NCBI GenBank assembly: GCA_020846885.1
Contig: JADLDC010000267.1
Span: 5,308-69,307 of the forward strand
DNA length: 64,000 nucleotides
Direction of reading: 5' to 3'
DNA from: Acidobacteriota bacterium
Lineage (GTDB): Bacteria; Acidobacteriota; Blastocatellia; Pyrinomonadales; Pyrinomonadaceae
Below the pieces are notes generated by a model. It was not told the origin of the DNA, did no database searches, and saw nothing but the letters and a program-made list of their open reading frames with translations. The position numbers were made by a program, and so were the translations under genes. Positions 26,540 through 61,136 of the stretch are shown here, piece by piece. Position 1 is the first letter of the stretch; every line of letters begins with the position of its first letter.

Positions 26540-26841
26540 AGGTCTTTCCGCCGCGCTGATCGAAACTGTTTAAATTCTTCAATGATCTGCCGCCAATTGT
26601 CCTTTTCGTCTTGAGAGGTTCCGACAATATCGCGAGTGATCCACTGAAATACGAAAGCATCCGACTCGGCCGCTTCGGCGGCTTCGAGGATCCCAAGAGC
26701 GTGTTCACGGGCTTCTCGCAGCCCCAGTTGAGCCGAGAGATCACCCCAATCAATCTGAACCAAGGGCTCAAAAGTTCGACCTGAAACAATGGATGTGACC
26801 GAGATCATCCCCTCAGCTTCCTTTCGATTTGCTATTCCCAT
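26536..26841 (-). CDS. hypothetical early protein
   Basis: 101-aa ORF with AAGGA upstream. Its stop overlaps the MuB-like start (ATGA). Confidence 0.5.
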   Translation of the reverse strand: MGIANRKEAEGMISVTSIVSGRTFEPLVQIDWGDLSAQLGLREAREHALGILEAAEAAESDAFVFQWITRDIVGTSQDEKDNWRQIIEEFKQFRSARRKDL

Positions 26842-26846
26842 TACAT

Positions 26847-27023
26847 TTATCCTTCGAGCTGTGCGATCAGCTCTTCGATGTCGTCCTCGTGCCAGAAACC
26901 TTTGATCGACCGGGCGAGTTGAAGCACGTCATGCTCGTCGATCAGTGATTCGAAAAGTTCAACGTTTTCCTCGGCGGTCAGAAGGCCGCGAATTTCATTT
27001 ATGCGTTCCAGATTTTTGCTCAT
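26847..27023 (-). CDS. hypothetical small acidic protein (58 aa)
   Basis: Below the track cutoff. AAAGGAG lies 7 nt before ATG 27023. Translation is MSKNLERINEIRGLLTAEENVELFESLIDEHDVLQLARSIKGFWHEDDIEELIAQLEG. Confidence 0.45.
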   Translation of the reverse strand: MSKNLERINEIRGLLTAEENVELFESLIDEHDVLQLARSIKGFWHEDDIEELIAQLEG

Positions 27024-27035
27024 GAATTACTCCTT

Positions 27036-28889: not shown

Positions 28890-29552
28890 TTAGGCCGCGG
28901 CCCGCCGGATCTCCGGTTCGGCCGTCAAGCTTTTCAGATAGGCGACCCAATCCGCCAACTCAGGCTCGGACAAAAGGCTGCTGCTGCTTGTTTTGAACCT
29001 CCTGCTCAAAAGCCGATACCAGAGCGTTTTATCGTCGCCATAGATCAGGCCGCTCTCGGTGCCGAGTGCGTGGGCCTGAGCGATGAGGTTTGAGCGGTTA
29101 GACCGTTGCGGGGAACCGGCGACAAACTGAAGTTTGTCGGACTGTTTGAAATGGAGTTTAAGCAGGTCGATGCCGCGGATGCGCAACGCGCTTCGAAGGG
29201 CACGCGAGCTGGCGAGCCAGACGATCTGCTGGTCGCTCTGCTTTTCGCCGTCGATCGTTTCGTTGACGTTGGCAACGCCGACGGCACTTGCACCGGTCGT
29301 ATCGGGCCATTGAAGGCTGACGGAATATGCCACGCTGTCGGGGCTGACCGGCGGGACAGGCTCGATATTTACGTGGCTCGGTTTGTAAAGGCGGTTGAGC
29401 ATAACGCACTGCGTTTCGTAGCCAAGCAGCGGTTTAACATCGGCCGAGAAAAATACGATATCATCGGGTTCGGTGCCGTAGGTCGAGCTGATCTCGGCGA
29501 CCAGGTTGGCCTGTTCTTTGTTTAAAGGTCGCTTTGGTTTTTTGTCGTTCAT
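28890..29552 (-). CDS. hypothetical early protein
   Basis: ATG 29552 with GGAGA upstream. It contains one copy of the dispersed palindrome (29120-29139) in frame (SDKLQFVAG). Confidence 0.55.
   Translation of the reverse strand: MNDKKPKRPLNKEQANLVAEISSTYGTEPDDIVFFSADVKPLLGYETQCVMLNRLYKPSHVNIEPVPPVSPDSVAYSVSLQWPDTTGASAVGVANVNETIDGEKQSDQQIVWLASSRALRSALRIRGIDLLKLHFKQSDKLQFVAGSPQRSNRSNLIAQAHALGTESGLIYGDDKTLWYRLLSRRFKTSSSSLLSEPELADWVAYLKSLTAEPEIRRAAA
29120..29139 (+). repeat. palindrome family copy CGACAAACTGAAGTTTGTCG
   Basis: The arm positions changed relative to the consensus remain complementary (G...C). Located inside a minus-strand CDS. Confidence 0.85.
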
Positions 29553-29565
29553 GGTTCTCCTTAAC

Positions 29566-30351
29566 TTAGTCATTTAACAGATCGGCGATATGGTCGCCGT
29601 CAGTTTCTAAAAGCTCGATCGAATCGACGCCGATCTTTGAACTAAGCAGCGTGTTGATGCGATTGAACTGTGAAGCGAGCAGCAGCAATTGCCCGTCGGC
29701 GTATTGCAGAAGTTCGGCCTCGGTAGCCTGTTCAAGCTCGGCCGCGAGAGCGGCCAGGCCGCCAATGGCGACAGTGTGAACCTGGTCGAAGGTTGAGACG
29801 GTGCGGCCGGATGCGGGATCGTCCTCAATCTTAAGAAGTCTTTCCTTGAGACGGCGAAAGTCGTCTTTTCCTTTTTCGAGCTTTTTGGTCTTGTCGGCGT
29901 TTGATTTGGCGAGAGCGGAAACGAGCTCGATGAAGCGAGTTGTCTCGCCATGTCCGACATGCACGTCGCCGCTATCGGTGTGTACATAAATGCCTTCGGC
30001 GGAAATTTCGACCTGGCCGGCGGCGAGGAGTTTTCGTTTATGGAGCGGTATGCCGGAGATCGAAAAGAGATCGAATAGCTCGTCGCCCTCAGTTTCAAGT
30101 AGCTTTTTCCTGTTATAGAACTCATGCTTGGTCATCACCGAAACGTCAGAGTCCGCGAGATAATCGACGAACTGCTGATAGCCGAGTGCACGATATGCCT
30201 TGCATTCTTCGATCAGGATCAATGTTCGAACGACTTCGGCGGTGAGGTTGTTTGCGATGCGGTCGGTAGCCTGGATTCGGCCGAGCAAGAGTAGGGCTTT
30301 TTCCTTGTCCATTACCGGATTTTCTTCAACAGTTCGTTTTGGTGCTGCCAT
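29566..30351 (-). CDS. hypothetical early protein
   Basis: 261-aa ORF with helical, protein-like composition. No motif recognised. Confidence 0.55.
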   Translation of the reverse strand: MAAPKRTVEENPVMDKEKALLLLGRIQATDRIANNLTAEVVRTLILIEECKAYRALGYQQFVDYLADSDVSVMTKHEFYNRKKLLETEGDELFDLFSISGIPLHKRKLLAAGQVEISAEGIYVHTDSGDVHVGHGETTRFIELVSALAKSNADKTKKLEKGKDDFRRLKERLLKIEDDPASGRTVSTFDQVHTVAIGGLAALAAELEQATEAELLQYADGQLLLLASQFNRINTLLSSKIGVDSIELLETDGDHIADLLND

Positions 30352-32126: not shown

Positions 32127-32410
32127 TCGGCACCTCCGTTTTTGACGGGATAGAGATGAAAGCTGACGGTGAAATGAGCGCCGAGGCTGATGCTGATCTG
32201 GCCGCCCAATCCGTAGGTTGAAACTTGCAAGGCCGTGCATGTTTGTTGTTCGTAATTAAGCCGGTCAATCTCATGGCGGATCGACGCGATGAAACCTTTC
32301 TCGTCGTAAACCAGTTGATTGCTCTCGTCCTGCAGGAAGCGAAGGGCGAGATGCTGAAGCTTGTTCTTGGGCTGGTTGAAGCTTGCAAGATGCGAGAAGT
32401 ATTTGATCAT
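32123..32410 (-). CDS. hypothetical early protein
   Basis: 95 aa. GGAGG 4 nt upstream of ATG 32410. Confidence 0.5.
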   Translation of the reverse strand: MIKYFSHLASFNQPKNKLQHLALRFLQDESNQLVYDEKGFIASIRHEIDRLNYEQQTCTALQVSTYGLGGQISISLGAHFTVSFHLYPVKNGGAE

Positions 32411-32898
32411 GCGGCCTCCTTTGAAGAACCCACCCGCTCACGCGAGGTGGTTCTGACTCGGTCGCGGGCGTTCATGGCCTTTATTGCCTCAATGATCTTG
32501 TTTGCTTCGGCGGATGTGCGGGGCCGCGGTTTTTTGATCATCCGGGTGCAGAGATTTTTGAGGCCGGCGTCGGTGATACCGCGGCCGGCGGCAAGATCAT
32601 TCAAAAACTTCATTTGTGCAGCGGTGGCGATCTGTGGAACGCCGCCCTTCTGACGACGATAATTCACCGTCCGGCGAGATGTCAGCCTGGAGCCCGGAGG
32701 GTTGAGGGGCTCGCCGCCGAGACGGTGAATTATCGCGTTGGCCTGGTCGAACGACAGACAGGATAAGCGTTCGACCAGACCGCCGGAAACCTGTGAAGCA
32801 ATATCTTCAAGAAATTCTTTCGGCTCCCAACCGGCCTCGCGTGCGGGCCGGCTGGCAAGGCCGAACATGCGCTTGATCTGTTCATTTGTCTTTAGCAT
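32407..32898 (-). CDS. GemA-like (Mu gp16 / DUF1018-like) regulatory protein
   Basis: Two repeats of the pattern seen in GemA family proteins (SCLSFDQANAIIHRLGG and TSAEANKIIEAIKAM). Located in the early operon of a Mu-like phage. Confidence 0.5.
   Translation of the reverse strand: MLKTNEQIKRMFGLASRPAREAGWEPKEFLEDIASQVSGGLVERLSCLSFDQANAIIHRLGGEPLNPPGSRLTSRRTVNYRRQKGGVPQIATAAQMKFLNDLAAGRGITDAGLKNLCTRMIKKPRPRTSAEANKIIEAIKAMNARDRVRTTSRERVGSSKEAA
32425..32454 (+). repeat. solitary copy of hairpin AGAACCCACCCGCTCACGCGAGGTGGTTCT
   Basis: Same stems as the 36.0-kb and 47.0-kb copies with a different loop (TCAC). It lies at the 3' end of the GemA-like gene. Confidence 0.8.
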
Positions 32899-32920: not shown

Positions 32921-33373
32921 TTAAGACAGGTCAAACTGAAGTTTGACGGTGATCATGTTGCTGACGGAGATGGTCGGGCGGGTTTCGTCAATATCAACGC
33001 GGAGGCCGGGGAAGAGATTCATCTGTTCGATGCGGCCGTCCTTGAGATTTCGGCGTTGCAGCTCGGCCTCCATCTGGTTGAAGGCGGTGATGTACGCCTC
33101 CTGCCAGATGGTCGCTTCCGTGCCGGTAAACGACATAGCGATCATTGCAAAGCCGTCGCGGGTAACGTTGAAGATCGGGTGCGGTTTTCCGTTGCGTCCG
33201 ATGTAGGTTGAGCCGTCAAAATTAACGGCTGAAAACGCCGCTGAACAATCGAGCATCTTGTTTCGAATAGCCTTCAACACATTGTCGTGAGACTTCTGGA
33301 AGTGAGCGGAAATGTCGAGTGATGTGGCGTACGCCTGGCCGTGGATGACTTTTAGTTTTGGTCCGTTTTTCAT
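32921..33373 (-). CDS. Rha family phage regulatory protein
   Basis: The N-terminal domain VIHGQAYATSLDISAHFQKSHDNVLKAIRN ... FNVTRDGFAMIAMSFTG matches the Phage_pRha pattern. Confidence 0.75.
   Translation of the reverse strand: MKNGPKLKVIHGQAYATSLDISAHFQKSHDNVLKAIRNKMLDCSAAFSAVNFDGSTYIGRNGKPHPIFNVTRDGFAMIAMSFTGTEATIWQEAYITAFNQMEAELQRRNLKDGRIEQMNLFPGLRVDIDETRPTISVSNMITVKLQFDLS
32930..32947 (+). repeat. palindrome family copy GTCAAACTGAAGTTTGAC
   Basis: Core AAACTGAAGTTT is intact and the outer arms differ but stay complementary. It covers the last codons of the Rha gene. Confidence 0.75.
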
Positions 33374-35900: not shown

Positions 35901-36051
35901 ACCTTTCCAAATGCGGTAAATCATTCCAACCGGAATAAACCTTCACATCTGCTATTTATTCGGACGTTCGTAATTCTTTAATCTCGACGTGGCAAATTAA
36001 GAACCCACCCGCTAAAGGCGAGATGGTTGCGGACTGATCATGAGCAAGAAA
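35901..36051 (+). repeat. 151-bp module, copy 1 (AT-rich promoter-like core, hairpin, then ATGAGCAAGAAA)
   Basis: Near-identical to 46927-47077 apart from a 6-nt block and a few point changes. Confidence 0.9.
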
Positions 36052-36142
36052 ATGAAGAACCCACCCGCTAACGCGAGGTGGTTCTGACTGATCATGAGCA
36101 AGAAAATAAAGAACCCACCCGCTAACGCGAGGTGGTTCTGAC
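35996..36142 (+). repeat. tandem array (54-bp period, about 2.7 units) of hairpin AGAACCCACCCGCTAA.G.GAGGTGGTTCT plus ATGAGCAAGAAA
   Basis: Hairpins at 36000-36030, 36056-36085 and 36110-36139. Two 15-codon mini-ORFs (36040-36087 MSKKMKNPPANARWF and 36094-36141 MSKKIKNPPANARWF). Confidence 0.9.
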
Positions 36143-38058: not shown

Positions 38059-38491
38059 ACTGCCGATCACCGATGGCATTCGCGATCTGCTGGATGATCT
38101 GACAGGCGGCCAAAAGCTGCTGATAGGCGGTGTCGTTCTGGCGGTGCTGATCGCGGTTTGCTTTGGCGGATACGCATGGTCGGGATGGAAGATATCGCGG
38201 CTGGAAAAGGAAACCGCCGAGGCAAAGGTGCGGGCCGGACGGCTTGAGGACCTGGCGGCGAAGAAAGAAATCGAGGCCGAGCAATACAAACAAAAGATCG
38301 AACACCTTGAGGGCAGTTTGGCCGAGATCAAGGAGATAGCAAAAACCCAGGATGAGGAACTTGAAAAGCTTAATTTTAGTGTTCGCGGCAGTCGGGCTGA
38401 TGTTGAGCGTGCCCGCGGCATACGGTCAATCAGAACAACAGCCGACGAACTCTGCAAGCGGCTCGGCGAAGTCGGACATCCGTGCGAGTGA
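38048..38491 (+). CDS. i-spanin-like protein (N-terminal TM plus coiled coil)
   Basis: AAGGAG upstream of ATG 38048. TM segment LLIGGVVLAVLIAVCFGGYAW followed by a long coiled coil. Confidence 0.5.
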   Translation: MTGKLPITDGIRDLLDDLTGGQKLLIGGVVLAVLIAVCFGGYAWSGWKISRLEKETAEAKVRAGRLEDLAAKKEIEAEQYKQKIEHLEGSLAEIKEIAKTQDEELEKLNFSVRGSRADVERARGIRSIRTTADELCKRLGEVGHPCE

Positions 38492-38861
38492 AGAAGTTCA
38501 ACGTAAAGACGCGGAGACGCAAAGCAGGATCGTAAACGCATGCGCGGCGGCGGTTGATGAACTGAAAAAGATCAGGGCCTTTGCCGACGTTCTGGAGCGT
38601 GAAAACATTCTGCTTCGGGAACGGCTGGACACCGAAAAGGCGGCGGTAAAGGTCCTGACGGAATTAAATGAGACGCGCCGGTCGGAGGCCGAGGCCCTGC
38701 GAACGGCGGTGGCGGCGAAGAACGAAACGATCGCGGCCAAGGATGCGGTGATCGCAAGGCAGGACGAGCTTGTCGGGGTTTTGAAGAAAAAGAAATCGTC
38801 GCCCTGGAAACGGGTTGGCGATGTGCTGATCGGGGTTGCGGTCGCGGCGATTCTGAAATAG
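38352..38861 (+). CDS. secreted coiled-coil protein overlapping the i-spanin-like gene out of frame (o-spanin position but no lipobox; C-terminal TM)
   Basis: Signal peptide MRNLKSLILVFAAVGLMLSVPAAYG, then a coiled coil and a C-terminal helix VLIGVAVAAILK. It overlaps 38352-38491 in another frame. Confidence 0.45.
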   Translation: MRNLKSLILVFAAVGLMLSVPAAYGQSEQQPTNSASGSAKSDIRASEEVQRKDAETQSRIVNACAAAVDELKKIRAFADVLERENILLRERLDTEKAAVKVLTELNETRRSEAEALRTAVAAKNETIAAKDAVIARQDELVGVLKKKKSSPWKRVGDVLIGVAVAAILK

Positions 38862-38869
38862 GAGCGGAG

Positions 38870-38957
38870 CAACAAACTGAAGTTTGTTGGACATCGGGGA
38901 GCAACAAACTGAAGTTTGTTGGACATTGGGGAGCAACAAACTGAAGTTTGTTGGACA
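38870..38957 (+). repeat. three tandem copies (32-bp period) of CAACAAACTGAAGTTTGTTGGACA
   Basis: Copies at 38870-38893, 38902-38925 and 38934-38957. Each is preceded by GGAG/GGGAG. The last runs into the start codon region of the next gene. Confidence 0.95.
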
Positions 38958-39538
38958 TGGGCATGCCGAAGAAGATACATCCCGAATGCATCAGTGACTG
39001 CTTTGACCTGTATTTGAAATATAACGGGTCGAACTTTCCTGCGATCCAGAAAGAGATGCGGGAGAAAGGCTGGTCCACGTTTACGAGCCAGAACATCCGC
39101 AAAAAGGTGAAAGGCGAGTATGAGGGTTGGGAGATCGATTTTGGGTGGAAGAAAGCTTTAGACGAACGCAACGCCCGCAAAGGCCAGGTTGCGATGACCT
39201 CGGCCGAAGGGCTGCATTATGAGGTCGAATCGGTGCGGAAAAACCTTTACGAGGTGATCCTCGAAAAGGGTATCAGAGACCCCGATAACAAATGGCTGCT
39301 GTGGGAGCACGGCAAATACGTTAAGAAAACGGCGGAAATCTTGTCGTCGATGGACGCGGCCCGCGACAATTACGCGAACTTTGTTTTCTTTTTGAAGCAC
39401 CTGCTATCGGCCGCAACGAAGATATCGCCGGAGATGGCCAGAGCGTTGTGCGAGGCCGAGGATGCGTTGCTCGATTGGGCGGAGAAGAAATTTGTTGTGG
39501 AGGATGTTCACCACAGAGACACTGAGACACAGAGGTAG
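38957..39538 (+). CDS. putative small terminase / packaging accessory protein (by position)
   Basis: About 193 aa, first gene after the lysis cassette and upstream of the large terminase. No motif recognised. ATG at 38957 or 38963. Confidence 0.4.
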   Translation: MGMPKKIHPECISDCFDLYLKYNGSNFPAIQKEMREKGWSTFTSQNIRKKVKGEYEGWEIDFGWKKALDERNARKGQVAMTSAEGLHYEVESVRKNLYEVILEKGIRDPDNKWLLWEHGKYVKKTAEILSSMDAARDNYANFVFFLKHLLSAATKISPEMARALCEAEDALLDWAEKKFVVEDVHHRDTETQR

Positions 39539-39776: not shown

Positions 39777-41339
39777 TTGAAACGACCGACAAAACACGAT
39801 CATCGCCAGGCGGCGAAGCGGGAGATAAACAAGACCAGGCGGGAGCTTGGTCTTAATGCGTTGGAGTTTCCGGCGTGGCTGCCGGCGGTGTCGCCTTACT
39901 GGTCATGGAACTGGCGGCATCAGCTTTATCTTTACGAAAAGCTCGATCTGGTGACGCGCGGGCTTTGCAAGCGGCTGATGATCTTTATGCCGCCGCGTCA
40001 TTCAAAGAGCGAGACGGTGACGGTCAGGTATTCGGCGTATCGGCTTGAGCAAAATCCGCGGATGAACATCATTCTCGGCTGCTATAACCAAAAGCTGGCA
40101 AACCGATTTTCGAGAAAGACACGGCGGATATGTGCAAGCCGGATCGCGTTGGCTTCCGATCGGAAAGCGGTCGAGGAATGGGAGACGGCGATCGGCGGCG
40201 GTTTTCGTGCCGTCGGTGTCGGCGGCGGAATTACCGGTTTCGGCGGCGATCTGATAATGATCGACGATCCGGTGAAGAACCGCGAGGAAGCCGAATCGAA
40301 AACCTATCGCGAAAAGTGCTGGGATTGGTTCAAGGACGATCTTTATACGCGCCTGGAGCCGGGAGCGGCGATGGTGTTAACAATGACACGTTGGCACGAC
40401 GACGATCTGGCCGGACGGCTGTTGAAAGAAATGGCCGAGGATGGCGGCGAGCATTGGGAAGTGGTTAGCTTGCCGGCGATCGCGGAAGAGGGTTTCACCA
40501 CAGAGGCACAGAGTCACGGAGAAGAGGAAGAAGAGATTAACGCAGAGACGCGGAGACGCGGAGTGCAAGAAGGAGAAAGCCTGTCGGAAGGCAGTAGCGG
40601 ATCAAATCCTCTGCGTCTCGGCGTCTCTGCGTTGAACAGTTCTTCTGATCCGCTTGGCCGCGAGCCGGGTGAAGCTCTTTGCCCGGAGCGGTATGACATT
40701 GAGGCACTCGAACGGCTGAAGAAGAAACTTGGGGCATACTCGTTCGCGGCGTTGTTTCAGCAGCGGCCGATACCGATCGAGGGTGCATTGTTCAAGCGAA
40801 GCTGGTTTCCGGCGGATAAGATCCGCGACAAGGCACCGGAAGGTTTACGCTGGGCCCGCGGATATGATCTGGCGGTTTCGACGAAAACATCGGCCGACTA
40901 CACCGCCAGCTTCCGGTGTGCTTTCGACAAGGAAGGAAACTTGTGGATCGCCGACGGATTTCGAAAGCGGATCGAATACCCGGAGCAGCGGCGGTATGCG
41001 GTCCAGCGGATGGTTGCCGAGGGCAGGACGCAGCACGGCATCGAGAAAGCCCTGCACGGCCAGGCGTTCGTGCAGGACCTGCGGCGCGTTCCGGCGGTGA
41101 GAAATGTCGCGTTCAAGGCGGTGAAGGTCGATACGGATAAATTTACGCGAGCGTTGCCGTGGGCGAATCTTGCTGAAGAAGGGAAAGTTTATCTGGTCCG
41201 CGGGACATGGCTAAATGACCTGCTGGACGAATTAACAAGATTTACCGGAAACGGGGACACGCACGATGACCAGGTGGACGCCATTTCAATTGCAGTTTCG
41301 ATGTTAACCAAGCGTTCAGGAAAACTTCTTACGTTCTAG
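39777..41339 (+). CDS. terL: terminase large subunit (with an in-frame repeat-element insertion of about 51 aa)
   Basis: ATPase region MIFMPPRHSKSETVT (Walker A-like) and LIMIDDP (Walker B-like). The C-terminal nuclease region with HDDQVDA is typical of TerL. The start codon is TTG. Confidence 0.85.
   Translation: MKRPTKHDHRQAAKREINKTRRELGLNALEFPAWLPAVSPYWSWNWRHQLYLYEKLDLVTRGLCKRLMIFMPPRHSKSETVTVRYSAYRLEQNPRMNIILGCYNQKLANRFSRKTRRICASRIALASDRKAVEEWETAIGGGFRAVGVGGGITGFGGDLIMIDDPVKNREEAESKTYREKCWDWFKDDLYTRLEPGAAMVLTMTRWHDDDLAGRLLKEMAEDGGEHWEVVSLPAIAEEGFTTEAQSHGEEEEEINAETRRRGVQEGESLSEGSSGSNPLRLGVSALNSSSDPLGREPGEALCPERYDIEALERLKKKLGAYSFAALFQQRPIPIEGALFKRSWFPADKIRDKAPEGLRWARGYDLAVSTKTSADYTASFRCAFDKEGNLWIADGFRKRIEYPEQRRYAVQRMVAEGRTQHGIEKALHGQAFVQDLRRVPAVRNVAFKAVKVDTDKFTRALPWANLAEEGKVYLVRGTWLNDLLDELTRFTGNGDTHDDQVDAISIAVSMLTKRSGKLLTF
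40494..40646 (+). repeat. REP-like element inside terL: TTCACCACAGAGGCACAGAG box plus a 25-nt inverted repeat (40539-40563 / 40608-40633)
   Basis: AACGCAGAGACGCGGAGACGCGGAG pairs with CCTCTGCGTCTCGGCGTCTCTGCGTT. The CACAGAG box also occurs at 39507-39535 and 55886-55917. Confidence 0.8.
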
Positions 41340-44432: not shown

Positions 44433-46634
44433 ATGTCCGCTCTCGAAGATCTACTCAAAAAACATCGGCAGCGGATCGCGACGCGTGAGGCGGCGGCGTT
44501 TCGTGAAATGCTGGCGGCGTACGAGCCGATCGAGCGGGAACTGCAAAGCTCGTATCGGGACCTCCAGAAAAAGATCAAAGCGGCCCAGGCAGCGGGCGAA
44601 ACGATCAGCCCCTCGTGGTTTTATCGCGAACGGCGGTTGAAGCTGCTGCTGGAACAGGTGCGGGAACAGATCGAGCGGTTTGGCCGGAACGCGGCCCCGA
44701 TCGTCGAGCGGGAACAGCGCGAGGCGATACGGATAGCGATAGAGCAGGAGAGAGAGACGGTCCGGCTTGTCGCCGGGCCCGCAAACTCAAGTTTGCGGGA
44801 CATTGGGAGCCAGCTTTCGCATCGGGTTGTCGAGAACGCGGTCGGGATGATGGGCGACGGCTCGCCGATACTGAGCTATTACGCCGAGAACTTAGCGCCG
44901 GCGGTCGCCGAAAAGCTCAAAAGCGAAGTGATCAAGGCGGCGGCGATGGGAACGGATTTTAGCACGATCGCCCGACGGCTGGCGGCGACGGGCGAGATCA
45001 CCAGGCGGCGGGCGTTGACAATGGCACGGACGGAGGTGAACCGCGTGAGGCGGGAGGCGAAGCGGCAGTTCTATGAGGACCATTCAGACGTGATCAGCGG
45101 ATGGGAGTGGATAGCGTCCAAGAGCACACGGACCTGTGTGGTGTGCCTGGCAATGGACGGCACGGTGCATAAATTAAAGGAAGAGTTTCCGCAGCATATT
45201 AATTGTTTGACAGCGGGCACAATAGTTTGTTCGCCGGAAACTCGGACGGCGACCCGAAGATTTTACGAAGGCGATGTTGTGGAGATCGAAACGTCAAGCG
45301 GCCTTCGGCTGACCGTCACCCCAAATCATCCGATAATGACGCGGAATGGCTGGGTAGCGGCGGACCCCATTGAGAAAGGAAACTATGTAGTCGGCACAGG
45401 CGACGGACAAAGGGTGTGTATTGATATCAATCCACACGTAGACAACAAACCATCCGTTGTCGATCAGATATTTATTGCGGCGATGGAACGCCGCGGCATG
45501 ATATCCGAAGTTGTGCCACATTCCCCCGCAAATTTCCACGGCGACGGGAAAGGCAGCGATGTCGATGTTATATTTATCGACCGCCATCTGAGGCGTGATC
45601 TGGATTCCGCGTTCGGTAAGCCAGCGGCCGAGACGCAGTTCATAAGCGGACGCGAAGGTCTGGGAGTGTTGGCGGGACAAAGCCCGTTTGACGAGCTGTT
45701 CATGCGGCACCTTCCGCCCTCGGACCGCATCATGAGCGGCCTTGACATTTCGAGCGTTTTCCCCGGGCGTCCGCTGTTCCATCATCATGCGGTTGGCATC
45801 AAGAACAGATCGGATCGGGACGCCTATCTCGATGAGGCGACGCCGTATCACCTGACGCGACACTCCGAAATGTTTAGCGAGGGCGTTCTCGGAGGTTCCA
45901 CTTTTGTATCGGGAAGCAAGTTCGGCGGTGGGAAGGTCATGGCGATTAGTACAGGTGATTCCGCGTTCCTTCAAAATTCCGTAGAAGCGGCGGGAAGCGA
46001 CATTGAATTTTGCCGCGATTTCCTTAACAGGCACTCCGTCAATGTAAGCCTTGATCGCGTCGTCAAGGTTAGTCGGTATTTTTATCGCGGTCATGTTTTC
46101 AACCTTGAGACATCCACTGGATATTATATCGCGAATGGCATAGTGACCCATAATTGCCGGTGCAACATTATCGCCGTGATCGACGGTGTTGAGCGGGAAC
46201 CGCGGACGACGGCCGGTGAATGGTTTCACGGCCAACCGGCGGACGTGCAGGAAAAGATATTGGGCAAGGACGCTCTTGCGGCATACAAGAGAGGTGATGT
46301 GGACCTTTCTGATTTTGTCGGGTACTCGACGCACCCGGCGTTCGGAGTCAGCGTAAAACGCCGGAAGCTGGCGGATGCACTTGGCAAGGCGGTGCATGAC
46401 GACGCGCGGGAATATGAAGGAATTCTGCAAGCCGCGGGATACGGCACGAAGCGAGTTAAGACCAAGAGCACAAACTCGGTGTACATCGTGGTTGATATAA
46501 ACGGGGTCCGCGGAAAGATAAGGGTCTCAGACCATGCGGCGGCACGGACGGACAATATTCTGGACCTGCGGCCGAGCAAGAAGATCACAAAAGAGAAGCT
46601 GATCGAAGGCGTTGACAGGCACTTTGGCAGGTAA
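44433..46634 (+). CDS. MuF-like / SPP1 gp7-family head morphogenesis protein interrupted by an intein
   Basis: The exteins give ...CVVCLAMDGTVHKLKEEFPQHIN|CRCNIIAV..., the conserved MuF motif. The intein is at 45204-46154. Confidence 0.85.
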   Translation: MSALEDLLKKHRQRIATREAAAFREMLAAYEPIERELQSSYRDLQKKIKAAQAAGETISPSWFYRERRLKLLLEQVREQIERFGRNAAPIVEREQREAIRIAIEQERETVRLVAGPANSSLRDIGSQLSHRVVENAVGMMGDGSPILSYYAENLAPAVAEKLKSEVIKAAAMGTDFSTIARRLAATGEITRRRALTMARTEVNRVRREAKRQFYEDHSDVISGWEWIASKSTRTCVVCLAMDGTVHKLKEEFPQHINCLTAGTIVCSPETRTATRRFYEGDVVEIETSSGLRLTVTPNHPIMTRNGWVAADPIEKGNYVVGTGDGQRVCIDINPHVDNKPSVVDQIFIAAMERRGMISEVVPHSPANFHGDGKGSDVDVIFIDRHLRRDLDSAFGKPAAETQFISGREGLGVLAGQSPFDELFMRHLPPSDRIMSGLDISSVFPGRPLFHHHAVGIKNRSDRDAYLDEATPYHLTRHSEMFSEGVLGGSTFVSGSKFGGGKVMAISTGDSAFLQNSVEAAGSDIEFCRDFLNRHSVNVSLDRVVKVSRYFYRGHVFNLETSTGYYIANGIVTHNCRCNIIAVIDGVEREPRTTAGEWFHGQPADVQEKILGKDALAAYKRGDVDLSDFVGYSTHPAFGVSVKRRKLADALGKAVHDDAREYEGILQAAGYGTKRVKTKSTNSVYIVVDINGVRGKIRVSDHAAARTDNILDLRPSKKITKEKLIEGVDRHFGR
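44778..44799 (+). repeat. palindrome family variant CCCGCAAACTCAAGTTTGCGGG (followed by ACATTGGG)
   Basis: 10-bp perfect arms with two compensated arm changes. The trailing ACATTGGG matches tandem copy 2. Located inside the MuF-like CDS. Confidence 0.8.
45204..46154 (+). other. intein (317 aa) in the MuF-like gene
   Basis: Block A CLTAGTIV, block B LTVTPNHPIMTRNGWVAADPIEKGNYV, blocks F/G HVFNLETSTGYYIANGIVTHN followed by +1 Cys. The flanks reconstitute H-I-N-C-R-C. Confidence 0.85.
45294..46094 (-). CDS. antisense-encoded HTH plus Vsr/DUF559-like PD-(D/E)xK endonuclease (putative homing endonuclease), nested in the intein
   Basis: ATG 46094 (AAGG 9 nt upstream). Two HTH-like segments (VKEIAAKFNVASRRFYGILKERGI and ALAKHFGVSRQVIRRRLIEIGV). 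Nuclease core YNIDIAAFPVAVEICGGMWH ... HRRNKYLIDNGWFVVYVW fits the D..E.DG..H...R..L...GW.V.R pattern. Confidence 0.65.
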   Translation of the reverse strand: MTAIKIPTNLDDAIKAYIDGVPVKEIAAKFNVASRRFYGILKERGITCTNRHDLPTAELASRYKSGTSENALAKHFGVSRQVIRRRLIEIGVPIRSVLDANRMMMEQRTPGENARNVKAAHDAVRGRKVPHEQLVKRALSRQHSQTFASAYELRLGRWLTERGIQITPQMAVDKYNIDIAAFPVAVEICGGMWHNFGYHAAAFHRRNKYLIDNGWFVVYVWIDINTHPLSVACADYIVSFLNGVRRYPAIPRHYRMIWGDGQPKAA

Positions 46635-46926: not shown

Positions 46927-47077
46927 ACCTTTCCAAATGCGGTAAATCATTCCAAGAGCGGTAAACCTTCACATCTGCTATTTATTCGGACGTTCGTAAT
47001 TCTTTAATCTCGACGTGGAAAATGAAGAACCCACCCGCTAAAGGCGAGGTGGTTGCAGACTGATTATGAGCAAGAAA
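46927..47077 (+). repeat. 151-bp module, copy 2 (includes hairpin 47026-47056, mini-ORF 47022-47063 and the scaffold gene start)
   Basis: Aligns base-for-base with 35901-36051 except for a 6-nt block and a few substitutions. Confidence 0.9.
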
Positions 47078-47663: not shown

Positions 47664-47727
47664 GGGGAACCACCCCGTCAGTCTGCCAAAAACGCAGCCT
47701 GCCAACCTCTCCTTAAACAAGGAGGGG
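47664..47727 (+). repeat. structured element A: GGAACCACCCC box, variable hairpin, then CCTCTCCTT-AAAC-AAGGAGGGG hairpin
   Basis: Related copies at 55653-55701 and 61073-61126. It lies between the scaffold stop and the capsid start. Confidence 0.8.
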
Positions 47728-47746
47728 AATTAAGAAAAAAAAACAC

Positions 47747-52686: not shown

Positions 52687-52716
52687 TGCCGGGCCAGATG
52701 TTTTTTGGATTTTGAA

Positions 52717-53049
52717 ATGGACCACTTCGAACAGCTAAAGCGAATGACGGCGGCCGCGGCCGAGCCGGTGCTGGCGAATGATGAGATCGAATCGCTGCTT
52801 GCGATGTTCGCCGTTGTCGACGCCGACGGGCTCAAGCCGACAGATCCCGAATGGCGGCCGACGTACCGGCTGAAGGCGGCGGCGGCCGAGGGCTGGCGGT
52901 GGAAGGCGGCGAAGGCGGCGGAGTTGATATCGTCGGACCTTGACGGCGACCGAATGAGCGCGCACCAGGTTTTTTACCATTGTCAGGATATGGTGAAGAT
53001 CTATTCGAGGGGAACGGCGACGACGAGCATGAGCGGAGCAACAAACTAA
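52717..53049 (+). CDS. head-tail connector/adaptor-like protein
   Basis: 110 aa. The pattern PTDPEWRPTYRLKAAAAEGWRWKAAKAA is common in phage head-tail adaptor proteins. The stop lies in the palindrome loop. Confidence 0.45.
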   Translation: MDHFEQLKRMTAAAAEPVLANDEIESLLAMFAVVDADGLKPTDPEWRPTYRLKAAAAEGWRWKAAKAAELISSDLDGDRMSAHQVFYHCQDMVKIYSRGTATTSMSGATN

Positions 53050-53062
53050 AGTTTGTTGGACA
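53039..53062 (+). repeat. palindrome family copy CAACAAACTAAAGTTTGTTGGACA
   Basis: Preceded by GGAGCGGAG exactly as at 38861. The loop variant TAA is the stop codon of the upstream gene (53047-53049). Confidence 0.9.
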
Positions 53063-53064
53063 CT

Positions 53065-53409
53065 ATGAACGAGGTCCTTAAATTAGCGGCGATCAACAGG
53101 CATAGGCGGCGGTTGTTTGGGGATGTGCCGCTGTTGGCCTATACGGTGACGCCGGAGGCGGGCGAGACGCTGGCGGCAACCTTTCTGATCGACTGGTTCG
53201 GGCAGCGGATCGAGAAAACGACGACCGGTTCGGCGGCGGAAGCGGGCGCATGGCAATTCCAGGTAAAGGCCGCGGACGATTGGGCAAACAGCCAGGCGTT
53301 CATGTTGAAAATAGCGGCACTTGCCATCGGTGCCCGGAGGTGGAGGGCGACGAAGGTCGAGAAGCCGATCGGGGTTTCGATGGTTTGGAAGATAAGGGCA
53401 ACAAACTGA
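53065..53409 (+). CDS. hypothetical head-tail joining protein
   Basis: About 114 aa, flanked on both sides by palindrome copies. Confidence 0.45.
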   Translation: MNEVLKLAAINRHRRRLFGDVPLLAYTVTPEAGETLAATFLIDWFGQRIEKTTTGSAAEAGAWQFQVKAADDWANSQAFMLKIAALAIGARRWRATKVEKPIGVSMVWKIRATN

Positions 53410-53422
53410 AGTTTGTTGGACA
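53399..53422 (+). repeat. palindrome family copy CAACAAACTGAAGTTTGTTGGACA
   Basis: The loop TGA (53407-53409) is the upstream stop codon. The next ATG is at 53422. Confidence 0.9.
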
Positions 53423-53910
53423 TGTTGTCGGACATTTTGATGATCACTGTGAGTGTAAAGGACAGGACACCGGAGCTGATGCAGAAACTGCAGGCGGCGG
53501 TTGAACAGTTTGTGGTCAAGGGTGCGGCGTATATTGAGGGCGAGCTGGTAAAGGAGTCCGCGGGGAAGAAGACGGGCCGAAGCTATCCGCGCGGAAAGGA
53601 GGCGGTGCACACCGCATCGGCACCGGGCGAGTCGCCGGCGAACGATTCGAGCAATCTGTACGGTTCGATCCAGATCATCAGTGAAAACTCACTGGAAGCG
53701 AAGATCGGGACGGTGGTCGAATATGCGGTTTATTTGGAATACGGAGCGTCGGCACCGGCGACGCGAAAGGTCAAGAAGACCGGCGAGGCGGTGATGGGGC
53801 CGCACATGGGCGGGATGAAGCCGAGGCCGCTATGGGCAAAGACGGCGGCCGAGAGCCTGCCGACACTGGAAAATATGCTGGAGGCGGAAGTGAGGAAGGC
53901 AAACAGGTGA
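53422..53910 (+). CDS. HK97 gp10-like tail/neck component
   Basis: RSYPRGKEAVHTASAPGESPANDSSNLYGSI ... VVEYAVYLEYG fits the HK97-gp10 family pattern. Confidence 0.6.
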   Translation: MLSDILMITVSVKDRTPELMQKLQAAVEQFVVKGAAYIEGELVKESAGKKTGRSYPRGKEAVHTASAPGESPANDSSNLYGSIQIISENSLEAKIGTVVEYAVYLEYGASAPATRKVKKTGEAVMGPHMGGMKPRPLWAKTAAESLPTLENMLEAEVRKANR

Positions 53911-54116
53911 GACGAGACAAATGGCAGCGGTTTCGCGGCTGCACGGAAAAACGGGCGTTTCAGACGCGGTTCTATGCCGAAGCATTTGCCTGGAACGTGC
54001 TGGGAGACGAGGAGGCGAGGGCCTACAGGTGCCGCTTCTGCAATGAATTTCATTTGACGCGAGACGCCGGCGACCAGGCAAAAGACAGACGGCGACCCTA
54101 TGAACGATCTCGATAA
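53907..54116 (+). CDS. small hypothetical protein
   Basis: The GTG start overlaps the upstream stop. 69 aa with YRCRFCNEFH. Confidence 0.3.
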   Translation: MRRDKWQRFRGCTEKRAFQTRFYAEAFAWNVLGDEEARAYRCRFCNEFHLTRDAGDQAKDRRRPYERSR

Positions 54117-54573
54117 GCAAATCAGGCTGGCGATCAAACCGGCGATCAAGACGCCATACGCGACGGCCTCGGTCTATGTGTGGAACGTGTTGTCGCACCG
54201 ACTGGACGAATGGCCGGGCCTGCTGCGGACGACCGATTTCGCGAGCTCGCAGAAGACTCACGGCTGGATCATCAAGCGGGTCGAAGGATCATCGACCTGG
54301 AAGAACACGGTCCGCGACCGTCCGGTCTGGACCTATGACCTGTGGGGTTTTTACGGTTTTCGGTCGGGGAAGGAATCGGACAACTCGGACCTGGAGTGGT
54401 CGGAAGTTTGGGATACGGTCTATGAGAATCTTAAGGCCGCTCCAAACCTCGGGCTTGACGGCGTTGTAGAACATCACGAATTGCTGCAGCTCGCGAACAA
54501 CACGACGATCGACTGCGGCGAGGAGACCCTGCATTTTTCGCACGGGCGGCTGGTAGTGCATTTGTGCTGCTAA
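54100..54573 (+). CDS. hypothetical tail component
   Basis: 157-aa ORF upstream of the major tail protein candidate. Confidence 0.5.
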   Translation: MNDLDKQIRLAIKPAIKTPYATASVYVWNVLSHRLDEWPGLLRTTDFASSQKTHGWIIKRVEGSSTWKNTVRDRPVWTYDLWGFYGFRSGKESDNSDLEWSEVWDTVYENLKAAPNLGLDGVVEHHELLQLANNTTIDCGEETLHFSHGRLVVHLCC

Positions 54574-54594
54574 CAAACTGAAGTTTGTTGGACA
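54571..54594 (+). repeat. palindrome family copy TAACAAACTGAAGTTTGTTGGACA
   Basis: The first three nt are the upstream stop codon TAA. It lies 13 nt before the ATG of the major tail protein candidate. Confidence 0.9.
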
Positions 54595-54606
54595 AGAAAA
54601 AAGAAC

Positions 54607-55647
54607 ATGAGAATAGATACATCGAGAAGCTGGATATCGAAAACGCTCGAATCCTCGTACAACACGCCGGAGGCAACCGGCTCAAACTACAGCGAGATCC
54701 CGACGCAGGAGCCATATTTTGTCCTGCCGAAACTTGAGAAAACATCGGACGCGGACCGCGTCGGGCAGGATGCCCCGACACATCTTTGCAACACGTACTG
54801 GTCGCACGGCGAGATCGGGCTTCGCGACGACGCTGAAACGGATGTGCCGGCGAGATTGTTCCGGCGTGCCCTGGGCGGATCGGTGACGGACACGGTGGTC
54901 AGTGCCGGGGCGGTCTGGGACCACACGTTCGCGATACTGCCGCGAGCGGCAAGCGATTTTCTGCCGAGCTTTTCGGTGGCGACGCTTTTGGGTTCGGCAA
55001 GCTTTCTGCTTGCGGGATGCATGATCGACCGCTTTAAGGTGAGCCAGAAAAACTCTGAGCGTGTGCAGCACGAGACCGACATCCTGAGCGGCGGCAAATT
55101 TACAAACCCGCACGGGCTGACGAGCTTGCCGTCGCTGGTCGATACGGCCTGCATGGACGGGTTCAGGACGAACATCCAGTACACGGATTCTGACGGTTCG
55201 ACGACCGTGAACCTGACGACGGCCGGCAAGGTGATCGAATGGATGGTCGAGCACAAGAACAACATTCGCCGGAACAAACGGCGAACAGGCGACCCGATCC
55301 AGACGGTTTCGAGCAGTGCCGGTGCCTATGTCAGATCGATGCCGCGTGGAAAATACGAAACGTCGGTCCAGATGGTGATCGATTTTGTTGATCTGACGGA
55401 ATGGACGAAGAGCGTGCAGAACGCGGTGTTCACGAACATGAAGATCACGGTCGTCGGCCCGATCATAACCGGGATATATAGGCATGAGTTTGAGATCATC
55501 ATCCCGAAATTCGGCTTTGATTCGCCGGACACAAGCGACGATGAAGGCGACGCCGCGACGCCGATCAACATTATCCCGTTCAAGGACCCGACGAGCGGCG
55601 GCACGATCACGGGGCGGATCAGGAACGCGCAGGGTACGCTGGTTTAA
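54607..55647 (+). CDS. major tail protein candidate
   Basis: 346 aa. Its position two genes upstream of the chaperone pair and tape measure is typical for a siphovirus tail tube protein. No motif-level support. Confidence 0.45.
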   Translation: MRIDTSRSWISKTLESSYNTPEATGSNYSEIPTQEPYFVLPKLEKTSDADRVGQDAPTHLCNTYWSHGEIGLRDDAETDVPARLFRRALGGSVTDTVVSAGAVWDHTFAILPRAASDFLPSFSVATLLGSASFLLAGCMIDRFKVSQKNSERVQHETDILSGGKFTNPHGLTSLPSLVDTACMDGFRTNIQYTDSDGSTTVNLTTAGKVIEWMVEHKNNIRRNKRRTGDPIQTVSSSAGAYVRSMPRGKYETSVQMVIDFVDLTEWTKSVQNAVFTNMKITVVGPIITGIYRHEFEIIIPKFGFDSPDTSDDEGDAATPINIIPFKDPTSGGTITGRIRNAQGTLV

Positions 55648-55652
55648 AAATA

Positions 55653-55701
55653 GACCACCCCACCGACGAAGCGTCGGCACCCCTCCTCAAACCAGGAGGG
55701 G
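55653..55701 (+). repeat. structured element B: GACCACCCC box, CCGACG-AA-GCGTCGG hairpin, then CCCCTCCT-CAAACC-AGGAGGGG hairpin
   Basis: Same architecture as 47664-47727 and 61073-61126. Confidence 0.8.
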
Positions 55702-55714
55702 AGTTTGGAGAGAT

Positions 55715-55951
55715 ATGGCAAGACAAAAAAGTGTTGAGCAGCAGCGGGAAGAATTTCTGGCCCGCGAAGCTCGCGAATGCAGGAAGTGGCAGCAGCCGAA
55801 ACCGTTCGAGCCCGAGCACAACGCGTGCCCGTGGATGGACGCGGAGACGGAAACCGAGGCCTTAGCGGCTGCGGAGGAAGAAGTTTTCACCACAGAGGCA
55901 CAGAGGAACACGGAGAAAGCGGAATTGAAAGGAGAGACTGAAAATAAATGA
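55715..55951 (+). CDS. hypothetical small protein (3' end made of a CACAGAG repeat box)
   Basis: ATG 55715 with GGAGAG upstream. 78 aa ending ...EEEVFTTEAQRNTEKAELKGETENK. Confidence 0.4.
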   Translation: MARQKSVEQQREEFLAREARECRKWQQPKPFEPEHNACPWMDAETETEALAAAEEEVFTTEAQRNTEKAELKGETENK

Positions 55952-56712
55952 ACAGTGATCAGCAGACAGGCGTCAGGGAGTCGATGGAGCCGCGTTGGGA
56001 GAATGCGGAAGGCGGCGGGAAGAAGGCAGATGGCAACCTGCAGCTTTACAGGATCGACTGGGAAACGGCGGAGGTTTCGTTTGCAAAGGGGCGGATGCGG
56101 CAGACGCTGAGACGGCCGACGGCGGACGAGATATTCAAACGCGAAAGCGACCTTGAACAGGAAGTGCCGATGAAGGCCGACGGCAGCTATGCCCTGCCCG
56201 ACCCGACAGTGGCCGAGGCGGTGAACGCCGAGCTTTACGACAAGCTCGTGACGGAAACGGCGGGCGAGGAGATAGAGATATGGGATGTACATAAATCGCA
56301 GGCACTGGAATCGCTCTACTCGAGCGAGATAGAGGTTGAGGGCGACGCTCTTGGCGAGGAAGTCGTGATAGCGGAAGAGATCGGCAGCGGAGACTGGGCG
56401 GACTTTACGGTGCGGCATATCCTGAGACGGCCGACGCGGGCCGAACTGGACAGCTATCGGCGAAAGGCCGCGGTCGGAAGCTATGTGAAACCGGGTAAAC
56501 GCGGACGGCAGATATTGGTAACGCGGTCGAATTTGAAGAATATTGTGCCGTTCTATGATCTGTGGACCGAGCGGGTCGATGGGGCGACGGTGGATGGCGA
56601 AGTGTTTAGCGAGGGCAACAAACTGAAGTTTGTCGGACAGGTTGATCCGCTGGTGAAGCGGAAAGTCGTTCAGGTATTTGCCGAGGCGATCGTTCAAAAA
56701 CTATCGGACTGA
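55948..56712 (+). CDS. tail assembly chaperone candidate (gpG-like, upstream frame)
   Basis: 254 aa, located just upstream of the tape measure. It is followed by an overlapping -1 frame ORF that lacks its own start. Confidence 0.5.
   Translation: MNSDQQTGVRESMEPRWENAEGGGKKADGNLQLYRIDWETAEVSFAKGRMRQTLRRPTADEIFKRESDLEQEVPMKADGSYALPDPTVAEAVNAELYDKLVTETAGEEIEIWDVHKSQALESLYSSEIEVEGDALGEEVVIAEEIGSGDWADFTVRHILRRPTRAELDSYRRKAAVGSYVKPGKRGRQILVTRSNLKNIVPFYDLWTERVDGATVDGEVFSEGNKLKFVGQVDPLVKRKVVQVFAEAIVQKLSD
56616..56639 (+). repeat. palindrome family copy CAACAAACTGAAGTTTGTCGGACA (intragenic)
   Basis: Read in frame as GNKLKFVGQ inside CDS 55948-56712. Confidence 0.85.
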
Positions 56713-57101
56713 CGGAAGCTCTCGCCGAACATTTCTGCGGCCATATCGACTGCCTGAACGAAAACGACGGCGAGAGCTGCCCGGGTGCCGCGGAATGCCG
56801 GATCATTAAACGGTATCCCGGCCAGGGCGAGGATGAGATCTGCGGATCATGCCAATTTCTGCCGACAAAACCGGAGGGCGTGCGAAGCGACTTGCACGAA
56901 TTCGTGAACGCCGCACTCGTGCTAACCGAATTAGAACGGAGCGGGGCCAAATTCCTTTATCCCGACGCACTTACGGCGGCGGAATGGGCAAGCCTGGCCG
57001 GATTGCAGCGGGGACGCGACCGGGCGGAGGGATTGCAGGCGGAACGGGACCGGAAGAAACGCCGGACTGAGGAGGCCAGGAAGAGGTTGAACGGGAAATG
57101 A
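56700..57101 (+). CDS. -1 frame extension (gpGT-like) of the tail assembly chaperone
   Basis: The -1 frame is open from 56646 and protein-like (HFCGHIDC..SCPGAAEC..ICGSCQF). It has no ATG/GTG/TTG before 56880. The overlap contains the A-run TTCAAAAAC at 56693-56701. Confidence 0.45.
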   Translation, partial: TIGLTEALAEHFCGHIDCLNENDGESCPGAAECRIIKRYPGQGEDEICGSCQFLPTKPEGVRSDLHEFVNAALVLTELERSGAKFLYPDALTAAEWASLAGLQRGRDRAEGLQAERDRKKRRTEEARKRLNGK

Positions 57102-57223
57102 TCGACGAACTTATCAGCGATTTTATCGAGACACGGCGGCAAGCCGAGGAGCGAGAGGCGGTGCGGGCGGCCGCGGATCGCGGCGTGCGGAGCAACAAAC
57201 TGAAGTTTGTTGGACTTGGGTGA
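57098..57223 (+). CDS. 41-codon ORF bridging to the tape-measure gene
   Basis: ATGA overlap at its start. Its stop abuts the tape-measure ATG. It contains a palindrome copy in frame. Confidence 0.3.
   Translation: MIDELISDFIETRRQAEEREAVRAAADRGVRSNKLKFVGLG
57193..57216 (+). repeat. palindrome family copy CAACAAACTGAAGTTTGTTGGACT
   Basis: Read in frame as SNKLKFVGL in a 41-codon ORF. It ends 8 nt before the tape-measure ATG. Confidence 0.9.
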
Positions 57224-61072: not shown

Positions 61073-61126
61073 GGAACCACCCCGTCCGCCCAAAGCGGCG
61101 TCCACCCCTCCTCAGACAAGGAGGGG
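61073..61126 (+). repeat. structured element C: GGAACCACCCC box, CCGC-CCAAA-GCGG hairpin, then CCCCTCCT-CAGACA-AGGAGGGG hairpin
   Basis: It ends 10 nt before ATG 61137. Confidence 0.8.
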
Positions 61127-61136
61127 AGCCGGAATA

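Follow-up and report, generated by a model that had tools for sequence, protein, structure and literature searches.

A hairpin repeat at gene junctions of a Mu-like acidobacterial prophage probably belongs to a new REP family with a cognate RAYT

A recurrent hairpin in the late operon of a prophage

The stretch of DNA analysed here, 64,000 nucleotides (nt) of contig JADLDC010000267.1 from an Acidobacteriota bacterium and hereafter called the window, carries a prophage in which one short palindrome recurs at the junctions between genes. From position 1 to ~23,000 the window holds host genes: cytochrome oxidase, NrfD/Fe-S proteins, a thiamine pyrophosphate (TPP) enzyme and a flavin adenine dinucleotide (FAD) oxidase. 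The best named relatives of its COX1 come from Blastocatellia/Pyrinomonadaceae, at 76% identity, and the host is acidobacterial. The prophage extends from ~24 kb to the window end. Its early region, read leftward, encodes a DDE transposase (27036-28823), an AAA_22 ATPase and Rha; its late operon, read rightward, encodes TerL, portal, Mu F-like minor head, major head, decoration, tail completion and tape-measure proteins. The DDE transposase, the AAA_22 ATPase, Rha and the Mu F-like minor head protein together suggest a transposable, Mu-like phage. The transposase, 595 aa long and rve-like, shares an early operon with the ATPase on the minus strand, at 25388-28823.

The recurrent element is 24 nt long and reads CAACAAAC-TGAA-GTTTGTTG-GACA, with the full consensus CAACAAACTGAAGTTTGTTGGACA. 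It consists of a 20-nt hairpin (an 8-bp stem and a 4-nt loop) and an asymmetric GACA tag, which on the opposite strand appears as 5'-(T)GTCC at the hairpin foot. A motif search of the whole window found 11 copies, spanning 29120-57216; in 100 dinucleotide-preserving shuffles, the number of matches to CAACAAACTGAAGTTTGTTGGACA expected by chance was 0.00. All 11 copies lie within the prophage, none in the 23 kb of host DNA of the window, and they are mostly at or near consensus. They are all oriented hairpin-then-GACA on the plus strand (simple binomial p ~0.001, or ~0.004 with a tandem triple taken as one event), and 0 of 11 has an inverted partner. The single hairpin is predicted to fold at -8.3 kcal/mol (z = -3.3), and the tandem triple at -37.9 kcal/mol. 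A scan of the window against Rfam 15 at gathering thresholds matched 0 families, a tRNA scan of it found none, and blastn of the region 50-58 kb against GenBank phages returned 0 matches. Our literature search for the element sequence found no paper.

Five of the copies, at 53039, 53399, 54571, 56616 and 57193, had been singled out in an earlier note on this DNA. All are present, with 0-1 mismatch to the consensus and none in the shuffles; the set was incomplete, however, lacking the copies at 29120, 32929 and 44779 and the triple. This perfect tandem triple (38870..38957, plus strand; copies at 38870, 38902 and 38934) repeats a 32-nt unit, GGAGCAACAAACTGAAGTTTGTTGGACATYGG, with 8-nt spacers, and stands between the stop of an open reading frame (ORF), 38352-38861, and the ATG of a small terminase (terS)-like gene at 38963. 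Further along the late operon, a variant with a compensated stem and an altered loop (CCGCAAACTCAAGTTTGCGGGACA; 44779..44802, plus strand) lies inside the minor head (Mu F/SPP1 gp7-like) gene, 44433-46634.

The remaining late copies, all on the plus strand, fall in the tail module, where we designate the genes concerned by letters. At 53039..53062 the loop is CTAAAG, and its TAA (53047-53049) ends gene A (52705-53049); gene B has its ATG at 53065. The stop had been ascribed to a mutated loop, and while the TAA indeed terminates the ORF, the mutation is not special to this site: a TAAA loop occurs in 32 of ~225 tagged copies in host genomes. The perfect copy at 53399..53422 ends gene B (53053/53065-53409) with the TGA of its loop (CTGAAG; 53407-53409), as the earlier note described, and is followed on its 3' side by a duplicated half-site, TTGTCGGACAT. 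Gene C (tail completion) then starts at ATG 53440, as judged from its alignment with relatives. The copy at 54571..54594 has as its first three bases the TAA stop of gene D (54100-54573), with the major tail gene, E, starting at 54607. Two copies are translated in the same frame, as had been noticed: one at 56616..56639 inside gene G (55948-56712), with one mismatch (GTC), read as GNKLKFVG, and one at 57193..57216 in the last 10 codons of a small ORF, gene I (57098-57223), read as SNKLKFVG within SNKLKFVGLG*; the tape-measure gene starts at 57224. The distance from GGACA to the next start codon is 2 nt (B), 17 nt (C), 12 nt (E) or 7 nt (tape measure), that is, 2-17 nt and not the 3-13 nt first proposed. 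Eight of the nine late-operon copies lie in a junction or at most ~100 nt from a gene's 3' end, and three of them hold the stop.

Two copies lie on the plus strand in the leftward early region. At 29120..29143, a divergent copy (CGACAAACTGAAGTTTGTCGGACT) is situated inside a minus-strand gene, 28890-29573, whose coding strand was deduced from its pattern of GC at third codon positions (GC3); read antisense, it gives SDKLQFVAG. At 32929..32952, a weak copy without the GAC tag (GGTCAAACTGAAGTTTGACGGTGA) overlaps the final codons of Rha (32921-33373), a minus-strand gene.

The element is dispersed in Blastocatellia genomes and its stem covaries

We scanned one genome per GTDB species for exact matches to the 24-mer and found it in 110 stretches. 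Among the 80 of these that were listed, 78 belong to metagenome-assembled genomes (MAGs) of Acidobacteriota / Blastocatellia / Pyrinomonadaceae / Chloracidobacterium, and one MAG has up to ~14 contigs carrying it. The 729 kb of flanking DNA contain 305 core sites, most of which adjoin gene ends. An inverted partner lies within 75 nt of 100 of the 123 host-locus copies, with the tags pointing outward (TGTCC-hairpin...hairpin-GGACA). This is the arrangement of REPINs, the doublet form that repetitive extragenic palindromes (REPs) take, which the copies of the window do not show. Doublets and singlets fill the host intergenic gaps tightly: in 28 cases GGACA has a same-strand start at most 15 nt away, and in 19 a convergent gene stops within that distance.

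The stem varies among these copies in a concerted manner, as CAAC/GTTG (151), CGAC/GTCG (15), CGTC/GACG (11) or CGGC/GCCG (5), while the TGAA loop (less often TAAA) and the GAC tag are fixed, with G21, A22 and C23 invariant. Across 40 distinct variants, covariation is found at base pairs 2-19 and 3-18, with both sides changed in 30 cells where shuffles give 9.0; 0 of 500 shuffles attain the observed score. Paired cells amount to 92.8%, and slid registers collapse. The element is thus a short palindrome whose stem complementarity is kept, as in REP families.

Some host loci deserve a separate mention. One apparently orthologous locus recurs in several different MAGs (L011, L015, L020, L048, L062, L065 and L084, L numbers designating the loci from other genomes), with a REP doublet between conserved flanks (...tcttgcgccaagcccttaacttaa...). 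In L052, L014/L077 and L102, the GGACA end is found 8-25 nt upstream of the starts of putative ribosomal protein genes; these are known by their first residues only, MPTINQLVRKGRER, MTDPIADML and MPRDNIILQCTE, which resemble S12, S8 and L33.

Copies flank probable RAYT genes

A motif search of the host loci returned one HUH protein, of 242 aa (L032:1499-2227), with the HUH motif NHVHVV. It matches the NCBIfam model of the REP-associated tyrosine transposase (RAYT), NF047646, with E = 2.9e-16 and 59.7 bits (curated cut-off, 80), and Pfam PF01797 (Y1_Tnp) with 22.5 bits (gathering score, 23). Many of its 1,287 homologues carry the Joint Genome Institute (JGI) name 'REP element-mobilizing transposase RayT', and 8 listed homologues have precomputed PF01797 matches. 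A PDB sequence search with this protein gave no meaningful match.

Four copies of the element lie upstream of the L032 gene and four downstream. The element also borders both ends of homologues of this gene at 78%, 76%, 75% and 61% identity, so that the arrangement known as a REPtron is found at 5 of 5 loci (L032, L120, L123, L124 and L125), in three genomic contexts that are unrelated. Next to two paralogues, of 55% and 50% identity (L121 and L122), the flanks hold other hairpin repeats. The RAYT genes themselves end inside copies of the element.

Flanking of RAYT genes is the defining relationship of REP-RAYT systems (PMC6006769, PMC3116915), and on this ground we assign the element to the REP sequences. 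We consider, with a probability of roughly 0.82, that it constitutes a new REP family of Acidobacteriota/Blastocatellia, with a cognate RAYT, that was seeded into the Mu-like prophage. The particular copies of the window would have been mobilised by such a RAYT.

Orthologous junctions of related phages are empty

The earlier note had called for a comparison of orthologous tail modules. We collected 28 relatives with conserved synteny, totalling 248 kb: 9 viral contigs found through the major tail protein, 9 loci found via TerL and 10 metagenome contigs. The viral contigs show 56-65% identity in the major tail protein, and the closest relatives do not exceed 66%. None of the 28 related phage loci contains a copy of the element, and the whole of IMG/VR gave 0 matches to the exact 23-mer and 0 to a degenerate 21-mer. 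The junctions of the tail module are therefore empty of the element in relatives.

The alignments suggest what happened at individual sites. At the D/E junction, relatives read ...TGCTGC-TAA (Cys-Cys-stop), followed by a short A-rich spacer and the ATG. Because their gene D ends in ...Cys-Cys-TAA without the element, the TAA of gene D in the window is ancestral, with ~21 nt of the element added after TAAC(A). The first three bases of the copy at 54571 do form the stop, as claimed, but by this comparison its T was not made for that purpose. In gene B, the relatives' C-terminus ...VWKIRAEVEK* corresponds to ...VWKIRATN* in the window; here, the element has replaced the last codons and supplies the stop. 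The junction that precedes terS measures 0-100 nt in relatives and has no REP triple. At least five relatives have tight, hairpin-free junctions.

We found no near-identical prophage without single copies; the Logan contigs that were retrieved are all 100% identical and so offer no exact pairs of empty and filled sites. No target-site duplications were seen at the element. REPs at late-gene junctions of other prophages occur in related fragments of two other MAGs (L007 and L085), one of them being a doublet after TerL.

Some relatives have other palindromes at the same places, namely the A/B, B/C, D/E and pre/terS junctions: L116-L119 (~4100-4350, 4600-4800 and 5900-6000) and L128 (~5520-5600). 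These palindromes are built from the tandem heptamers TTGGACC/TTGGACT, ATTGAGT and CAGGATA/G. These junctions are recurrent landing sites for different small repeats.

Placement with respect to codons

The 24-nt core corresponds to eight codons and preserves the frame. Of its sense frames, one meets the stop of the loop (TGA or TAA) and two are open; the antisense frames, with a TTCA loop, are open. We propose that REP copies of the host entered the prophage, a RAYT (HUH/Y1, acting on single-stranded DNA) maintaining and spreading the REP in host chromosomes, and that the survivors would be only those copies that left the phage proteins functional. Three kinds of site would then be tolerated: intergenic ones, 3' ends at which a few residues are trimmed by the stop of the loop, and in-frame positions within tolerant loops. 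In the stop frame near a 3' end, a copy would take the place of the last codons and bring its own stop (genes A and B); in the second frame it would be read through as NKLKFVG, as in genes G and I; in the third it would sit directly after an existing TAA, as in gene D. The copy at 44779 is in the stop frame, where its loop CTCAAG reads TCA (Ser) and the ORF stays open; as the sole copy placed deep in a gene in that frame, it may owe its survival to the loop change that removes the stop.

Host genes also end in the element, with a stop codon inside 14 of 227 copies (4 via the loop TGA), and copies also occur in frame inside genes, on either strand. Hence, placement at gene ends is more simply read as a survival filter than as a targeting preference. 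In a phage operon that is ~95% coding and has many short genes, the survivors would look precisely placed, so selection acting on insertions of an eight-codon element best accounts for the 'codon-level precision' remarked on in the earlier note. One of that note's suggestions, a miniature mobile palindrome inserting preferentially at gene ends, is essentially right: a REP family with a cognate RAYT exists in the host lineage and the junctions are empty in relatives, but targeting gives way to the filter. Translational coupling or re-initiation, and likewise mRNA processing between cistrons, are not supported as explanations of the element's origin, given that relatives manage without it and that two copies are antisense in minus-strand genes.

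Certain copies share sequence beyond the 24-mer: a 5' flank (GA)GCGGAG is common to 38870, 53039 and 57193, and a 3' TYGGG to 38870, 38902, 44779 and 57193. These shared flanks indicate that the REP was probably also copied from one prophage site to another.

Points against, and alternative explanations

Several observations weigh against a REP family seeded into the prophage by insertion. The foot tag is GTCC and not the canonical 5' GT[AG]G, although non-GTAG families exist, such as CGTC-tagged repeats and the atypical class 2.6 repeats (PMC3733652, PMC6006769). The HUH motif search found no RAYT gene within the window, and the presence of a cognate RAYT in the host of this prophage is our inference. 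In REPs, the doublet is regarded as the unit that replicates and singlets as its decayed remnants (PMC3116915); the prophage copies are all singlets or direct tandems, though doublets are usual in the host. Pseudomonas prophages are REP deserts (PMC3390384), and here the reverse holds: the prophage has 9 clusters in ~40 kb, against ~1 additional cluster per 38 kb in host loci and 0 in the adjoining 23 kb of host DNA, a contrast that is only suggestive, the host loci being taken from other genomes. Finally, the copies at 56616 and 44779 cause no length change with respect to relatives. The former aligns without gaps to the relatives' PDKRDEFVA, and its right arm (AGTTTGTCG, with the one mismatch of that copy) equals the ancestral GAG-TTT-GTC. 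Judging from these alignments, both look like patch conversions of a partly similar site, and not like clean insertions.

The uniform orientation calls for its own explanation. The copies at 29120 and 32929 keep the genomic orientation inside minus-strand genes, yet they are the most divergent of all. As they do keep it, we favour a cause at the level of the DNA strand over selection at the level of the transcript; most likely, insertion was strand-specific, based on single-stranded DNA and set by the direction of replication. Selection against the opposite orientation, or against doublets, in a long operon is the alternative. A more far-reaching idea is that the prophage is not a passive recipient, its sense, near-consensus singlets being ~9-fold over the rough host background: the RAYT might prefer single-stranded replication intermediates of the phage, or the phage might have co-opted the REP as intercistronic punctuation. 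We hold this to be rather doubtful. If true, the former would be a previously unrecognised interaction between REP/RAYT and a phage, and in the latter, stop-in-hairpin attenuators and mRNA stabilisers would tune the protein stoichiometry of the tail module.

The persistence of the copies, as distinct from their origin, might have a functional reason. They could be kept or selected as intercistronic RNA hairpins that set the yields of head-tail connector and tail proteins, through attenuated termination/re-initiation at the stop/start or by shielding upstream mRNA from 3' exonucleases; such a role is compatible with a REP origin. The placement of eight of nine late-operon copies in or near junctions, with starts 2-17 nt on, agrees with it, as do their sense orientation, their closeness to consensus and the stability of the hairpin, and the other palindromic inserts of L116-L119 and L128 at the same junctions. 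Classic REPs are known to stabilise upstream mRNA. REPs of E. coli reduce translation of the gene upstream when they lie less than 16 nt from its stop codon (Liang et al. 2015, cited in PMC12306157). We nevertheless judge selection for function unlikely: at least five relatives do with tight junctions devoid of hairpins, the two early copies are antisense in their genes while keeping the same genomic orientation, ordinary host genes share the stop-in-element arrangement, and the GGAG prefix shows no link to a nearby downstream start. It is still plausible that the copies at the A/B, B/C, D/E and I/tape-measure junctions modulate expression. The related reading of a Shine-Dalgarno sequence bridged by the hairpin would put GGAG at the hairpin's 5' foot and the start codon 6-11 nt beyond its 3' foot, an arrangement seen for terS, B and the tape measure. 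Host copies do not support it, the GGAG/GAG prefix having no significant link to a nearby start (6/14 versus 27/109, Fisher p = 0.20), a comparison that is underpowered.

A single orientation, short intergenic gaps and a triple array directly upstream of the terS-like gene would also suit operators of a phage regulator, that is, stoperator-like repressor sites, late-activator sites or terminase (cosB/pac-like) sites with the triple as the main one, and there is a superficial likeness to the stoperators of mycobacteriophages L5 and Bxb1. We give this next to no credence. It is largely refuted by the host distribution, the identical 24-mer being dispersed in many host chromosomes near housekeeping and RAYT genes; moreover, stoperators are conserved whereas the element is found neither in the 28 related loci nor in IMG/VR, and covariation of the stem points to a single-stranded hairpin, not a duplex operator. 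Highly improbable, too, is a miniature inverted-repeat transposable element (MITE) or terminal repeat of a DDE transposase, such as the Mu-like one of the prophage, with the RAYT uninvolved. The prophage does encode this transposase (27036-28823) with its AAA_22 ATPase, and the outer ends of the doublets read TGTCC...GGACA (TGT...ACA). But the element flanks RAYT genes at all five loci and in three contexts, repeat families are specific to each paralogue, the element occurs in genomes and loci without phage genes nearby, and target-site duplications were not seen.

Other readings were tried and rejected. As a promoter, the TGGACA of two copies makes a weak -35, and promoter-like sites number 7 versus 8.7 in shuffles; as a terminator, one copy scores, on the wrong strand. 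A CRISPR repeat or solitary repeat does not fit the 8-nt spacers, the inverted doublets of host copies and the lack of arrays, nor does a DNA-uptake or Chi-like sequence fit a stem that covaries while its sequence changes.

Comparison with known repeats

The element resembles the REP/BIME-RAYT (TnpA-REP) system of E. coli, where BIME stands for bacterial interspersed mosaic element, and the REPINs of P. fluorescens in being a short palindrome with an asymmetric foot tag and dispersed copies that appear mostly extragenic; in forming predominantly inverted doublets in host DNA and clusters that flank a single-copy HUH/Y1 gene (REPtron); and in that repeat families are specific to RAYT paralogues, tandem arrays occur now and then, and some copies lie in frame inside genes (PMC3116915, PMC6006769, PMC3733652). 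It departs from them in having GTCC in place of GT[AG]G, an AT-rich stem and a fixed TGAA/TAAA loop, and in that the identical 24-mer is common to several families or orders of Blastocatellia. The one-orientation singlets and direct tandems of the window, located in a prophage, are also unlike the situation in Pseudomonas (PMC3390384). Our search of a paper library found no description of a REP/RAYT system in Blastocatellia; the 24-nt unit is unusually conserved and its GTCC tag non-canonical.

As with the Rickettsia palindromic elements (RPE) and with REPs found inside genes of Xanthomonas/Stenotrophomonas, palindromes are tolerated in frame, where a short peptide is added or replaced (PMC3733652). 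Unlike RPE, which are ~100-150 bp long, the unit has eight codons, and most copies stand at 3' ends with the loop supplying the stop. A hairpin at or after the stop codon also recalls the E. coli REPs lying at most 15 nt from the stop (Liang, Rudd and Deutscher 2015), for which PMC12306157 summarises evidence of ribosome stalling and a lower yield of the upstream protein. In contrast to E. coli, the stop lies inside the hairpin loop or forms the first bases of the element.

The stoperators of cluster A mycobacteriophages and the start-associated sequences of cluster K are short and conserved, keep one orientation relative to transcription and sit on stop/start junctions. The copies of the window share their shortness, single orientation and location. 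Whereas those sites are phage-specific, conserved and repressor-bound or start-linked, the element is a host chromosomal repeat with no copy in the related phages. This carries a warning for annotation: a conserved palindrome that sits on the stop/start junctions of a phage may be a repeat of the host and not a regulatory signal of the phage. A REP origin also explains odd C-termini of phage proteins (…ATN*, …NKLKFVG…). A REP-rich prophage of this kind is a natural record that could reveal the minimal mobile unit of RAYT-driven spread and its strand bias, and its REP copies might be used as a clock of how long the prophage has been resident.

Other repeats and signals in the window

A second repeat family, TTCACCACAGAGGCACAGAG, is made of tandem octamers (CACAGAGG) and occurs at 39507-39526, 40494-40513 and 55886-55905, always on the plus strand, with none expected by chance. 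One copy is at the terS-like gene's end and the others are within TerL and gene F; all three are translated in frame. In TerL it belongs to an in-frame insert of ~170 nt (40494-40665), in which octamer arrays form an inverted repeat, ACGCGGAG x3 ... CTCTGCGT x3; PHROG profiles of TerL skip residues ~239-296 at this insert.

A separate conserved hairpin, CCCCTCCTC-loop-GGAGGGG, is found at 47704-47729, 55678-55703 and 61103-61128, upstream of the major head gene and downstream of those for the major tail and tape-measure proteins. It is probably the phage's own terminator or processing hairpin, also supplying a Shine-Dalgarno sequence.

The regions 35901-36142, 46927-47077 and 32401-32454 contain two further repeats, one of 151 nt with 93% identity and a 54-nt unit. 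The latter has four occurrences, two of them in tandem, and includes a hairpin, GAACCCACC...GGTGGTTC.

Just 3' of the copy at 56616, a -1 frame is open over 56644-57101 and overlaps the end of gene G (stop at 56712). It is a candidate for a tail chaperone frameshift of the G/GT type, with a CAAAAAC run near 56695.

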